64,000 bases of DNA from Pseudomonadota bacterium (lineage in GTDB: Bacteria; Desulfobacterota; JAZDOA01). Below, in pieces: positions 28,273-60,468 of the stretch (the stretch's first letter is position 1; the number at the start of each line of letters is the position of its first letter). The stretch spans positions 1,242 to 65,241 of the forward strand of contig JAZDOA010000156.1 in the NCBI GenBank assembly GCA_043799175.1, written 5' to 3'. The translations under genes and the position numbers were made by a program. The notes under the pieces were generated by a model. That model searched no databases and had not been told where the DNA came from. It saw nothing but the letters and a program-made list of their open reading frames with translations.

Positions 28273-28928
28273 TGGTCTCCCGGCTCAGCGCAAATATCAG
28301 AACACTGCTGGCCGGCGGCGACCTGGAGTCGCTGAAGGCTTTGGCTGTTGGCGGGCAGCCGGTGGTACGCGGCCTGGTCTCGCTCCTCTACGACGAAGAC
28401 GCCCCCGCGCGCTGGAAGGCCATTTCCGCCCTGGGCCAGGTCTGTGCGACCCTGGAGCGCTCCGGCCGCAGCGAGCGGGTGCATGATCTCGTCCGGCGCC
28501 TCTTCTGGATGATGAACGACGAGTCCGGCGGCAGCGGCCGCCACCTGCCGGAGGCGGTGGGCGAGATTCTCTATTGCGTGCCGGTGTTGCTGCCGGCCTT
28601 CGGTCCCATGCTGGCCACGCATCTGGATATCGATCTCTACACCGCCGGGGTGTGCTGGGCCGTGGGAAGGATGAGCCAGCGCGACCGGCGGTTGTTCGCT
28701 TTCGTGCTGCCCGAGGTCCGAAAAGACTACCTGGGCCACGAGGCCCCTGAGATACGCGCCCTGGCGGCCTGGTGCCTGGGGTGGGCGAAGGACGAAGATG
28801 CGCGGCCGCTCCTGGCCGAGCTGGTTGCCGATTCAGCCGAGGCGGTGGTCTTTGAAGATGGCGAATTGCGGAAGGCCAGCGTGGGGCAGTTGGCCACCGA
28901 GGCGCTGGGGCGGCTGAACAGGCCCTGA
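28272..28928 (+). CDS. HEAT/PBS-lyase repeat protein
   Basis: ATG at 28272 overlapping the upstream stop (TGATG); repeated helical units with conserved Arg/Ala/Leu periodicity (ARWKAISALGQV, IRALAAWCLGWAKD). Confidence 0.55.
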   Translation: MVSRLSANIRTLLAGGDLESLKALAVGGQPVVRGLVSLLYDEDAPARWKAISALGQVCATLERSGRSERVHDLVRRLFWMMNDESGGSGRHLPEAVGEILYCVPVLLPAFGPMLATHLDIDLYTAGVCWAVGRMSQRDRRLFAFVLPEVRKDYLGHEAPEIRALAAWCLGWAKDEDARPLLAELVADSAEAVVFEDGELRKASVGQLATEALGRLNRP

Positions 28929-28974
28929 AGAAACTCTGATGGTTTCGTAAAAAGTCAGCCTGTCCTGTCCCGTC

Positions 28975-29040
28975 CCGTTCATGGTTCGATACCTCACCAC
29001 GAACGGAAAATCAGATACTTACGACCTACTCCATCCGTTC
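28975..29040. repeat. Partial copy of a short palindromic repeat (core TTCGATACCTCA flanked by CCGTTC/GAACGG)
   Basis: CCGTTCATGGTTCGATACCTCACCACGAACGG closely matches 29672-29703; a CCGTTCGCCCTGG fragment matches 29611-29623. Confidence 0.6.
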
Positions 29041-29194
29041 GCCCTGGAAGCCTTTCAAAAAAGGATTTGAGTGTGGGGTTGCAGCGTGTCGCTGCCAGGG
29101 TCGCCATATACAGAACCGCCCTGATTATGTCCCCGCCCACCCCTATCTTTATAACCTCACTGACAAAGCTTCCCTGGCAAAGGCCATAGATTTC

Positions 29195-29431
29195 ATGACC
29201 AAGATGACATCTCTCAGACCGACTGATTCCAGGCTATATCGCAACCGTGCTGACTATTACCGAGCCTCCGGCAACAATCAGCTCGCGGTGCGGGACTACT
29301 CCACGGCCATAAGACTCGCCGGCGAGGCCGCAAGCAGTTCTGACTACTACCTCACGGAGACTTTGTTAAACAAGGTCTGCGCGCCAAAGGACATAAAGAA
29401 GGCGAAGAATGGTAAGAAGGGCAAGAAGTAA
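29195..29431 (+). CDS. Questionable small ORF with one TPR-like motif and a poly-Lys tail (possibly a gene remnant)
   Basis: 78 aa; the segment ADYYRASGNNQLAVRDYSTAIRL is TPR-like; C-terminus KKAKNGKKGKK; embedded in a repeat-rich non-coding region. Confidence 0.25.
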   Translation: MTKMTSLRPTDSRLYRNRADYYRASGNNQLAVRDYSTAIRLAGEAASSSDYYLTETLLNKVCAPKDIKKAKNGKKGKK

Positions 29432-29580
29432 GGACACGATTTTGATGGTCTGGTAGACGGAAGCGGTCAGGAATGCAGGGCCGCCCGATAAATTGCAGGG
29501 CAGGCACAGGGGCCTGTGCCCCTACAAGAGGCACGAACAGAACCCTCCCAGCGGGGGAATGCGGTGCGGGAGGCAATTAG

Positions 29581-29738
29581 GGAACCTCTGAATGAGTCCC
29601 CGCGTTGCCAACCGTTCGCCCTGAGGTATCGAAGGGCGAACATAAAACGGTATCAAAGCATTCACTATTTCCGTTCATGCTTCGATACCTCAGCACGAAC
29701 GGAAGCGGTTCAACGGGCTTATTCAGAGGTTCCTTAGC
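29581..29738. repeat. Large imperfect palindrome made of two inverted ~65-nt repeat copies (29581-29645 and 29674-29738), each with an internal hairpin
   Basis: Left arm GGAACCTCTGAATGAG...CCGTTCG..CTGAGGTATCGAAG...; the reverse complement of the right arm is GGAACCTCTGAATAAG...CCGTTCG..CTGAGGTATCGAAG...; internal perfect hairpin GTTCGCCCT-N10-AGGGCGAAC at 29614-29641. Confidence 0.65.
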
Positions 29739-30020
29739 GGTAGTAAAAAAAACGACTCCGGAAGCGGCTTTCGGCCTACTCCCGCCCGAAAAAGACCTTC
29801 ACCGGCTCCCCTTACTCACCTCCTTCCTTTCAGAAGGAGATTTTTGGGTTCGCCTCCAGCCTCTCCGAATCGGTTTCGCCTACCGGCCATCTCCCGGAGT
29901 CACTTTTAGGATAAGGACCGCCGGGCCAGGCTGTCAAGCACCCGGAGAGATGGTCGGAAAATACCCAGCGAGGCCAGTTGCCCTCCGCCGAAGTCCCTTG
30001 GGAAACACCCGCCCGTTTTC

Positions 30021-30060
30021 CAAAGAAAAAGGCCGGAGACTCACGTCCCCGGCCTTTGTT
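30021..30060. terminator. Bidirectional terminator 3' of the cytochrome c3 gene
   Basis: GGCCGGAG-N8-(C)CCCGGCC stem flanked by A/T runs (CAAAGAAAAA ... TTTGTTTATT). Confidence 0.6.
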
Positions 30061-30076
30061 TATTCGGTAGCAGTGC

Positions 30077-30451
30077 TTACTTCTTGTGACACTCGGTGCA
30101 GGTGGTCGGCGCGGGCTTGCCGGCCTTCTTTTCCTTCACGTGGCAGCCCTTCCAGCAATTGTTGTGGAAGGCGTCCTTCAGGGCTATCGGCTTCGGCCCG
30201 GTCTTGTGGCAGGCGTCACACTTCTGGACCGGGTCTCCCTGCTTCCAGACGTTCTTGCCATCTTTGTAGACATGGTGGCAATCAGCGCAGGCGGTCTTCA
30301 GATCAACGTGCTTCTTGTGCGTAAACTCCACCGCGCCCTTGGTGGCACCCTTGAGGCTGATGGTGTCAGGCGCCTTTTGCGCCGCGGAGGCCACGCCCAT
30401 GGCGCAGACAAACGCGGCCACCAGAATCAAAGCAATCGTCCCTCTTCTCAT
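30077..30451 (-). CDS. Periplasmic tetraheme cytochrome c3 (type I-like)
   Basis: Signal peptide MRRGTIALILVAAFVCAMGVASA followed by four CxxCH motifs (CADCHH, CDACH, CWKGCH and CTECH); mature protein about 100 aa. ATG at 30451; the ORF-track 5' extension is spurious. Confidence 0.85.
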   Translation of the reverse strand: MRRGTIALILVAAFVCAMGVASAAQKAPDTISLKGATKGAVEFTHKKHVDLKTACADCHHVYKDGKNVWKQGDPVQKCDACHKTGPKPIALKDAFHNNCWKGCHVKEKKAGKPAPTTCTECHKK

Positions 30452-59438: not shown

Positions 59439-60468
59439 CTGCCGGGCGCAGGCTGACCGTCAGCTTCACGACACGGCCCGACACCGCGCGGATGGCAATC
59501 TTGTGCTCACGCCAGTGGCGCTGGCGCAGGTCCCGGAGTATCTCGGCCACCACCAGCCGCCGGGTCTCCTTGGGCAGCAGGGCGGAAAAACGGTGGCCCA
59601 CGAGATCCCTGGCCGGCCGGCCCCAGATGGCGGCGGCGGCCGCGTTCAGCTTCAGCAGTCTGCCCGTCTGGCCGAATATGAGGATTGGACTGGTGTTACA
59701 GTCAACCAGCTCCTCGACAACGGCCGAGATCCGCCGTATCTCCTGTTGCTGAACGAGCGCGCGGCGCATGAAGCGCTCCACCTCCAGCCCCAGGCCTTGG
59801 TTGAGTGCATCCAGCCGGCGTTTCAGCTCTACGCTCTTGAGCATCTGGGCCGCGGTGGCGGACAGCAGCACCAGGGCGTGCTCTATGTGCCGGGAGGGCA
59901 ACTCCGCGAGCGGGCTGCCAAGCTTGATGATCCCCAACCGTTCCTCGTCGGCTCGCATGGGCGCCAGGGCCACGAAGCCGCGCTGGTCCTCGTCCGGTTT
60001 GGGGTAGGTGAGCGTGGGGTACTGAGACCGGAAGGCATCCGCCAGTGGTCCGTTGCTGGCCGAGTATACCGCCGGGTGCCGGCCGCAGGTGGAACCGGCC
60101 TCCCGAAGCTCGTCCCGCCGTCTGTCGTAGAGGTAGATGTGACAGCACTCGAACTCCAGCTCCGCGGCCAGGACCACCGACGCCGAGGAGCAGACTTCTT
60201 CAGGGGTATTCGCCTCGGACAAGACGTCACTGAGGCGGCGGATCGCCGAGAGCACCCGGAGCAACTCCTCGTAGCGCTGCTGGACGAGCGAAATCTCGCG
60301 AGGATAGACTTCATGCCAGCCGCTCGCCTCCTCGAGCATGTCAAGGAGCCCGTTCAGGCGACGGATCATCTCCGGGGTACCGGCGGCCGGATCGAGGCGG
60401 GCCGTGTGATCTCCCCGCTCGATTTGATCGAGCAGCGTGCTGAAGGCGTCTGTACAGTCCCTTGCCAC
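59290..60468 (-). CDS. GAF/PAS-domain signalling protein; the C-terminal ~50 aa are low-complexity read-through overlapping the REC gene
   Basis: GAF-like middle region followed by a PAS-like segment (PILIFGQTGRLLKLNAAAAAIWG); the tail (Pro/Arg/Gly-rich) overlaps REC ORF 58998-59438 by 149 nt. Confidence 0.55.
   Translation of the reverse strand: MARDCTDAFSTLLDQIERGDHTARLDPAAGTPEMIRRLNGLLDMLEEASGWHEVYPREISLVQQRYEELLRVLSAIRRLSDVLSEANTPEEVCSSASVVLAAELEFECCHIYLYDRRRDELREAGSTCGRHPAVYSASNGPLADAFRSQYPTLTYPKPDEDQRGFVALAPMRADEERLGIIKLGSPLAELPSRHIEHALVLLSATAAQMLKSVELKRRLDALNQGLGLEVERFMRRALVQQQEIRRISAVVEELVDCNTSPILIFGQTGRLLKLNAAAAAIWGRPARDLVGHRFSALLPKETRRLVVAEILRDLRQRHWREHKIAIRAVSGRVVKLTVSLRPAGGDQEDGPLPGRGEGRPPQAATPPEGRRRQPAYQEAAHYRRRDFAAREP

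Follow-up and report, generated by a model that had tools for sequence, protein, structure and literature searches.

One of the questions raised by the region downstream of the dsr operon in this Desulfobacterota genome (GenBank assembly GCA_043799175.1, contig JAZDOA010000156.1) regards the nature of a 1.1-kb intergenic gap. In the 64-kb stretch of the contig that we analyzed, hereafter the window, the whole gap covers 1148 nt (28929..30076). Based on open reading frames (ORFs) and Pfam, it begins after the stop codon of a HEAT-repeat gene (28926-28928) and ends before the stop, at 30077, of a convergent gene for class III cytochrome c (cytochrome c3). A first-pass annotation had described this gap as packed with short palindromic repeats. 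Such repeats are present, yet they account for no more than some 270 of the 1148 nt, and the question is what they are and how they came to be there. The explanation that we consider probable is that the gap is mobile debris with two miniature transposons, and that the hairpins carried as cargo by these transposons are the cognate repeat of a clade of small GIY-YIG nucleases, in a partnership similar to that of the Ssn nucleases.

The repeats of the window are built around the 12-mer TTCGATACCTCA (reverse strand TGAGGTATCGAA), which is found three times, at 28985-28996 (+), 29622-29633 (-) and 29681-29692 (+), always within the gap. About 0.15 matches are expected per 64-kb window and no shuffle attained three, while the 32-nt core that surrounds the 12-mer gives two matches against zero expected. 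The palindromic repeat family reported by the first-pass annotation is thus real, although no further copy of the core was found elsewhere in the 64-kb window, which holds three hairpins in total, each of 32 nt. Hairpin A (28975..29006) reads CCGTTCATGG-TTCGATACCTCA-CCACGAACGG on the plus strand, and its better-paired strand, with the loop TGAGGTATCGAA, is the minus strand. Hairpin C (29612..29643) has a perfect stem and lies with its loop forward on the plus strand (CCGTTCGCCC-TGAGGTATCGAA-GGGCGAAC). Hairpin B (29671..29702), read on the plus strand as CCGTTCATGC-TTCGATACCTCA-GCACGAACGG, is again better paired on the minus strand. The loop is identical in all three, but the stem of A and B is GTTCATGS/SCACGAAC and that of C is GTTCGCCC/GGGCGAAC; both sides of the stem therefore change together while the loop stays constant, as in compensatory change. 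As single strands the three hairpins fold with -7.5 to -11.6 kcal/mol (z of -2.3 to -6.7): for hairpin A the minus strand gives -9.8 kcal/mol and the plus strand -7.5, for hairpin B the corresponding values are -11.6 and -9.4, and hairpin C has -10 kcal/mol (z = -4.6). In A and B the strand that reads TGAGG is thus 2.2-2.3 kcal/mol more stable than the opposite one. The composite formed by C and B has an inner pair of inverted arms of 35 nt with 80% complementarity and an outer pair of 22 nt with 86%, and its 167 nt fold with -43.6 kcal/mol (z = -7.5).

A search for the core, a check proposed with the first-pass annotation, revealed a family dispersed in other genomes. By scanning one genome per species with the pattern GTTC-N4-TTCGATACCTCA-N4-GAAC, the hairpin was found in at least 120 loci, compared with about one expected by chance according to our own estimate from the specified bases. 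The hosts are Gamma-, Beta- and Deltaproteobacteria and one Aminicenantes metagenome-assembled genome (MAG). Among the matches listed are Lysobacterales (Dokdonella, Rhodanobacteraceae, Rudaea), Betaproteobacteria (Azohydromonas, Gallionella, Rubrivivax, Ferrigenium), Methylococcaceae and Syntrophobacter-like delta lineages, and in some MAGs and isolates several contigs per genome were matched. Of the 120 genome-scan loci listed (loci are given below by L numbers), 76 have more than one hairpin. Together with loci that were fetched by protein similarity, which are described below, there are 113 adjacent inverted pairs, most of them combining one stem of type RTGS/SCAC with one of type RYCC/GGRC. 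The sequence outside the 32 nt is not conserved across copies. The viral contigs of IMG/VR gave no match to the TTCGATACCTCA hairpin; the Neisseria-type NTS pattern GTCATTCCCGCG-N3-GCGGGAAT was found there in at least 120 stretches, so that the two repeat families differ sharply in their habitat.

The consensus hairpin is 5'-CCGTTCG-YSS-TGAGGTATCGAA-SSR-YGAACGG-3', with a fixed loop and outer stem and an inner stem that varies with compensation. At stem positions 6-8, Watson-Crick pairs are found in 95-97% of a set of 137 unique copies, with at least two pair types per position, and when partner bases were shuffled among copies the observed pairing was reached in only 0, 0 and 2 of 2000 shuffles. 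At stem position 5, read on the TTCGA strand, A.C is found in 74 of these copies, G-C in 54 and G.T in one; the A.C cases are G.T wobbles on the opposite strand, which reads TGAGG and has the loop TGAGGTATCGAA. In addition, in a set chosen only by loop and by proximity to the nuclease gene, 64-73 of 81 copies retain the 5' CCGTTCG arm of the TGAGG strand, and it is the 3' arm that decays. The wobble asymmetry and the retention of the 5' arm indicate that the motif is directional and looks selected as a folded single strand.

Several loci depart from the simple hairpin or doublet. In L106 (6454-7527) there is a tandem array of eight hairpins, mostly about 115 nt apart, L204 (2945-3740) has alternating hairpin pairs, and half-hairpins are triplicated in L157, downstream of the gene, and in L060 (3988-4060). 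Such arrays are not explained by transposon insertion. In L014 and L088 the first hairpin of the doublet has a 30-nt palindrome, CCTGCCTGCGCCGAGGCTTCGGCAGGCAGG, within its loop between TTCGATA and CCTCA, which appears to be a second small element that targets the loop. Expanded or broken loops are also seen in L123, in the elements of the H1-B1 MAG and at 29046/29047 of the window.

Which protein, if any, goes with this repeat? We clustered 5312 ORFs from 120 hairpin loci to find enriched neighbours. No transposase-like cluster was enriched among them, while a gene for a GIY-YIG protein of about 100 amino acids was found between reverse and forward hairpins in five or six loci, including L041, L062, L076, L086 and L106. 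The same bracketed gene was found in L123, in L132 and in about 20 metagenome loci that were anchored on the protein, and hairpins also surround the genes of the proteins P0012 and P0090 in their exact-protein contexts. The representative protein, P0001, has 101 amino acids and a single domain, PF01541 GIY-YIG (E = 3.6e-16). A homology search with it returned 4430 proteins, and the 120 that were listed have 94-168 amino acids, mostly 101; Y6, Y16 and E63 are invariant in the family alignment. Protein similarity was also used to fetch 80 metagenome loci, and in 78 of them the motif TGAG-N3-7-TCGAA lies within 300 nt of the gene, against a background of 0.15 per kb. The layout is regular: in about 20 loci the start codon is preceded at 20-95 nt by a forward hairpin on the sense strand, and the stop is followed after 1-35 nt by an inverted copy. 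Moreover, the loop type follows the protein type. Among the same 80 loci, TGAGGTATCGAA is found with all 16 proteins that have the C-terminal tail WGxRNPLP, while 55 of the 64 tail-less proteins carry only TGAGCnnGTCGAA (TGAGC(T/C)TGTCGAA) in the same CCGTTCG...CGAACGG frame. A third loop variant, TGAGCGAAGTCGAA, goes with a homologue from Sphingomonas and yet another variant with one from Thiocystis. The gene contexts show the hairpin family to be the cognate flanking repeat of this clade of single-domain GIY-YIG nucleases of about 101 amino acids.

The position of the nuclease gene can also be followed between genomes. Directly after the gene for homogentisate dioxygenase it stands at the same place in L062, L132 and L149 (in L132 between hmgA and fahA), and in L151, L160 and L163 it follows the same upstream gene. 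Such conserved positions at only about 60-70% protein identity suggest long vertical retention, similar to domesticated RAYTs, the tyrosine transposases associated with repetitive extragenic palindromes (REPs).

The closest characterised system is that of Ssn, a family of GIY-YIG proteins of about 94 amino acids (CDD cd10448) whose genes are bracketed by hairpin repeats, NTS or SRM (Ssn-related motif; Chenal et al., 2025, Nat Commun, PMC11893778). It was shown that Ssn proteins bind the hairpin only as single-stranded DNA and cut just upstream of it on one strand, that mutation of Y6, Y17 and E64 abolishes cleavage by SsnA, which has no double-strand activity, that the NTS loop is dispensable for SsnA, and that Ssn limits transformation in Neisseria (PMC11893778). 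Its authors also point to a resemblance to insertion sequence (IS) elements and to the REP-RAYT pairing (PMC11893778). The family described here is similar in having a single-domain GIY-YIG protein of about 100 amino acids whose gene lies, in other genomes, between a forward and an inverted hairpin, and in a repeat that is dispersed in intergenic DNA and directional, with a conserved 5' side. In both systems different protein subclades pair with different repeats, and Y6, Y16 and E63 of the P0001 family correspond to Y6, Y17 and E64 of SsnA. The hairpin sequences themselves are unrelated, CCGTTCG...TGAGGTATCGAA...CGAACGG here and CGTCATTCCCGCG-MAV-GCGGGAATCYRG for NTS. For the placement relative to the Ssn clade, the protein of the viral contig L319 was used as a proxy for SsnA; its gene is in a canonical NTS-gene-NTS unit, and it is 35% identical to P0001 (E = 1e-12). 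Among solved structures, the best matches are UPF0213 proteins (BH0048, PDB 1ZG2; EF2693, PDB 1YWL; E = 2.6e-21, 45% identity), which have the same length and a single GIY-YIG domain. The hairpin family is part of a variant of the Ssn-type partnership of nuclease and repeat, one not described in the literature searched. Full-text searches returned nothing relevant on the loop sequences or a related loop, and nothing for GIY-YIG in combination with REP, RAYT or YhbQ.

How, then, did hairpins of this family enter the gap? The first-pass annotation had suggested an element similar to REPs or to MITEs (miniature inverted-repeat transposable elements), which is borne out by the ends of the C-B doublet as well as the dispersal of the core. 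The two hairpins are bracketed by an outer inverted repeat, GGAACCTCTGAATRAG, at 29581-29596 and 29718-29733. Sequence comparison resolves it into a left terminal inverted repeat GGAACCTCTGAATGAG (29581..29596, plus strand) and a right one, GGAACCTCTGAATAAG, on the minus strand (29718..29733), both 16 nt long and matching at 15 of 16 positions. Together they delimit an intact miniature transposon of 153 bp (29581-29733) that has no ORF, here called element 2. With the TTAG direct repeats that flank it at 29577-29580 and 29734-29737, it extends over 29577..29737. The same family of terminal repeats was found at eight other places in six loci, and these copies are flanked by TTAA, TTAG or CTAA, which fit YTAR, with CTAA/CTAG at one copy. 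In one MAG, elements of 122-194 bp on five contigs have unrelated flanks right up to their ends; the copy in L013 is flanked by TTAG twice and the other copies of that MAG by TTAA, so that the four bases are a direct duplication of the target and not an inverted repeat. The IS5 of E. coli, retrieved for comparison, has the ends GGAAGGTGCGAATAAG / ...AACAAG and a TTAG duplication. The terminal repeats that resemble IS5 and the YTAR/TTAG duplication therefore identify element 2 as a miniature transposon of IS5-group type.

Element 2 shares with the IS5 group and its MITEs the 16-nt ends of the form GGAAssTsyGAAyrAG, the 4-bp YTAR duplication and the small size without an ORF. It differs in that no more than 11-13 of the 16 positions of its terminal repeat agree with IS5, in that no full-length IS with matching ends was found in the window and the fetched loci, and in an interior, the hairpin doublet, that also exists without IS5-type ends. 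Element 2 is a non-autonomous transposon that inserted at a TTAG site and duplicated it; judging from its ends, an IS5-group transposase that came from elsewhere most likely mobilised it.

The third hairpin belongs to another element. A partial third copy had been annotated at 28975-29040; the copy is real, but it extends further to the left and is broken at the right, covering 28937..29046. It corresponds to the left two thirds of a miniature transposon, element 1, which has at its left end the terminal repeat TGATGGTTTCGTAAAAAGTC (28937-28956), then hairpin A, 28 nt of spacer and, of an inverted partner hairpin, the first arm (5' arm CCGTTCGCCCTG, 29035..29046, plus strand, located by repeat search). 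Its ends differ from those of element 2. In BLAST, complete elements in L079, L049, L083, L071, L088 and L036 match element 1 with 81-87% identity over 72-114 nt. These complete relatives are about 175 bp long, with ends TGATGGnnTCGTAAAAAGTC and variable 4-bp duplications, and in L027, L036, L037, L049, L079 and L083 the partner hairpin is intact, at a distance of 28 nt from the first. In the window the partner hairpin is broken inside its loop, at 29046/29047, next to a remnant of an IS110-family transposase, and no right terminal repeat was found in the window. An IS110 insertion that used the hairpin as target was considered and rejected; the junction at 29046/47 lies within the transposase reading frame and not at an IS end, and therefore a later deletion, the simplest account of the break, is the more likely one. 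The terminal repeat TGATGGnnTCGTAAAAAGTC was also observed in MAGs of different phyla (L065 1841-1860, an Aminicenantes MAG; L079 3056-3075; window 28937-28956), which points to horizontal spread or else to binning errors.

Several observations weigh against the explanation that we consider probable. The window has three hairpins per 64 kb and no GIY-YIG gene, and with the E. coli IS5 transposase as a tblastn query no IS5 transposase was detected in it or in any fetched locus, so that any activity in this genome is hypothetical. (An apparent GIY-YIG match at 60013-60111, E = 0.036, is spurious and lies inside a long unrelated ORF.) The same doublet occurs within transposons of at least two unrelated end types, which a nuclease-repeat partnership does not explain. 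In the genome scan the loop and the GTTC/GAAC stem were fixed, which makes their conservation there a matter of construction, and only the protein-anchored set is unbiased in this respect. The SRM pattern as published, HGTCWYN(0-2)YYVSBRHN(0-5)WNVSBRGN(0-2)RNCYNB, was not found in any of 106 hairpins on either strand. The 12-14-nt loop is the most conserved part here, in contrast to the dispensable loop of NTS, and so the analogy may not cover the mode of recognition or the cut site. P0001 is also nearer to the UPF0213 protein BH0048 (69 bits) than to the NTS-linked protein of L319 (45 bits), and no such hairpins were found at the UPF0213 and UPF0213-like genes of Listeria and Legionella, of which the Listeria gene, unlike those described here, overlaps its operon neighbours.

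Other explanations can be offered for the same data. Classical GIY-YIG homing enzymes exist, and one unlikely option is that the enzyme is selfish and that the 32-bp palindrome is a double-stranded target split by its gene, with solitary hairpins and doublets as uninvaded or healed sites. This would fit the finding that the gene always lies between inverted hairpin copies, the flanks in L132, which look like the two parts of a single hairpin with the gene in between (...TATCGAAGGGCAT / gene / ATGCCCTTCGATA...), and the frequent breaks or insertions in hairpin loops (window 29046/47; L014, L088, L123). The strand asymmetry, however, with 74 A.C against one G.T and a 5' arm that is better retained than the 3' arm, indicates a folded single strand and not a symmetric duplex. 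At about 65% protein identity, the gene follows hmgA in three loci and one shared upstream gene in three others, which suggests long vertical retention; the protein is without an extra DNA-binding domain, and the one characterised relative lacks double-strand activity (PMC11893778). We give little credence to the idea that these are plain miniature transposons of IS5 and other types, with internal hairpins that have no partner protein, and that the GIY-YIG link reflects a shared insertion preference. The ends and duplications of element 2 and of the eight other copies need only a transposase, and the window has no nuclease gene. Yet IS5-type ends are found on only nine of the 113 adjacent inverted pairs, and chance co-insertion cannot account for the hairpin at fixed distance and orientation in 78 of 80 nuclease loci or for a loop type that follows the protein subclade.

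The first-pass annotation had also allowed for a structured non-coding RNA locus, and an element that acts as RNA, for instance a terminator, or a 3' hairpin that stabilises the mRNA of the dsr operon, similar to REPs in E. coli transcripts, would be expected to have stable hairpins with compensatory stem changes just downstream of the last operon gene, as is the case here; G.U pairing would account for the strand asymmetry equally well. We nevertheless regard an RNA element as very improbable. With gathering thresholds, Rfam matched nothing in the window or in the 13 related loci that were scanned, and gave only chance-level matches when relaxed to E up to 10; the region is missing from the same gap in three relatives; and copies stand in both orientations as inverted doublets, with no T-run after them and with unconserved flanks. 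The closest characterised system, moreover, acts on single-stranded DNA (PMC11893778). The locus is thus ordinary mobile-DNA debris and not a regulatory RNA, even if the hairpins may have a secondary role as a transcript-end structure. A resemblance of GGTTCGATACC to a tRNA T-arm was dropped, as the tRNA/tmRNA scan gave none. The option to which we give almost no weight is a REP family, with doublets of the REPIN type, moved by a RAYT. The inverted doublets of short, imperfect palindromes, intergenic and dispersed, do resemble REPINs (PMC3116915), and in both cases a single-copy partner gene is flanked by the repeats and apparently kept vertically. Here, however, the partner is a GIY-YIG nuclease, which was enriched among the neighbours when no transposase-like cluster was, and not an HUH tyrosine transposase. 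Neither a GTAG nor a CGTC tag is present, the hairpin type is not in the earlier GTAG/CGTC catalogue of palindromic repeats, the flanks past CC/GG are unconserved, and the loop is identical across bacterial classes, unlike the lineage-specific REPIN families. An integron attC site was rejected as well, with no GTTRRRY core and no enriched integrase or transposase nearby.

The setting of the gap agrees with an accumulation of mobile DNA. The same gene order is found in three relatives (54-59% identity): dsrA, dsrB, dsrD, a cbiA-like gene, a small ORF, the HEAT gene, the facing cytochrome c3 gene, hycI and the NiFeSe hydrogenase. In these genomes the orthologous gap measures only 92 nt (L346), 116 nt (L348) and 70 nt (L349), and the hairpin was not found in any of the three. 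About 1 kb of the window gap is therefore inserted material, placed ahead of the ancestral shared terminator. That terminator is a bidirectional intrinsic hairpin just after the cytochrome c3 gene (30028..30057; terminator scan, 13 pairs and then a T-run), the only part of the gap common to the relatives; the 92-nt gap of L346 holds an equivalent (aaaggccggg...cccggccttt). The gap would thus be a landing zone in which mobile DNA accumulated between two convergent operons, upstream of their original terminator. A further relative, L344 (GCA_040961035.1, 4885-7655), has co-directional nitrate-reductase-gamma-like and cytochrome b genes after the HEAT gene in place of the cytochrome c3 and hydrogenase genes, which makes the junction downstream of the dsr cluster a site of repeated rearrangement.

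Besides the two transposons, the gap holds other fragments. The IS110-family remnant, which like the IS5-type ends and the link to the nuclease family had not been noticed in the first pass, is the C-terminal part of the transposase, about 31 codons on the minus strand (29048..29140). It was recognised by Pfam Transposase_20 (E = 0.032, profile positions 63-86 of 87) and by tblastn, in which its residues 2-31 match annotated IS110 family transposases in more than 1000 plasmid records, with a best E of 1e-4. The similarity stops exactly at the broken hairpin of element 1. The 78-codon ORF at 29195..29431 (plus strand), which has a single weak TPR-like repeat and a tail rich in Lys, had been taken for a remnant, and we agree that it is probably a gene fragment; its only TPR matches are below threshold (TPR_2, E = 7.8e-4, 19.8 bits against a cut-off of 27 bits), and it has no counterpart in the orthologous gaps of the three relatives. 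For the remaining gap sequence no match was found within the window or any fetched locus, and among plasmids neither the gap interior nor the composite element had a match.

A 14-nt inverted repeat (CAAGAAGTAAGGAC / GTGCTTACTTCTTG), matching at 13 of 14 positions, was seen at 29422-29435 and 30073-30086. It joins the 3' ends of the TPR-like ORF and of the cytochrome c3 gene on the opposite strand, each of which ends in Lys-Lys-stop, and may be a trace of a duplication or inversion of the cytochrome gene end, or chance. In the right part of the gap, a terminator-like hairpin at 29820-29839 (+) is followed by ATTTTTGG, and there is one promoter-like site at 29937-29908 (-); these are consensus matches only. 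For annotation, the odd 1.1-kb gap beside the dsr operon should be treated as transposon debris.

Returning to the partnership that we consider probable, a mechanism can be outlined by analogy with Ssn and NTS. In DNA that is made single-stranded by replication, repair or uptake, the strand with the TGAGGTATCGAA loop would fold, and the nuclease would recognise the loop together with the 5' CCGTTCG arm and then cut nearby. Cutting is predicted on the TGAGG-loop strand only and to depend on the loop (TGAGGTATCGAA compared with TGAGCTTGTCGAA). The hairpins of the window are transposon passengers, and would serve as substrates only if a gene for the enzyme lies elsewhere in the genome. A wider proposal, somewhat more likely to fail than to hold, is that the UPF0213-like GIY-YIG clade, sister to Ssn, reads the 12-14-nt loop (TGAG-x-TCGAA) and not the stem, that loop and protein subclade co-evolve, and that transposons of IS5 and other types spread the target hairpins across genomes and phyla, which would make it a second nuclease-repeat partnership, absent from the literature searched.

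The pairing of small GIY-YIG nucleases with dispersed hairpins is extended by these findings to a different hairpin superfamily and to a putative sister protein clade, in which the loop and not the stem is conserved. Ssn enzymes are under development as site-specific cutters of single-stranded DNA, and the clade described here would have new loop-defined specificities, whose three or four loop variants give predicted enzyme-site pairs that are directly testable. If the proposal is true, the uncharacterised UPF0213-like proteins would gain a first testable substrate and a functional lead, and transposons that capture the target hairpins would disperse nuclease sites through genomes and phyla.

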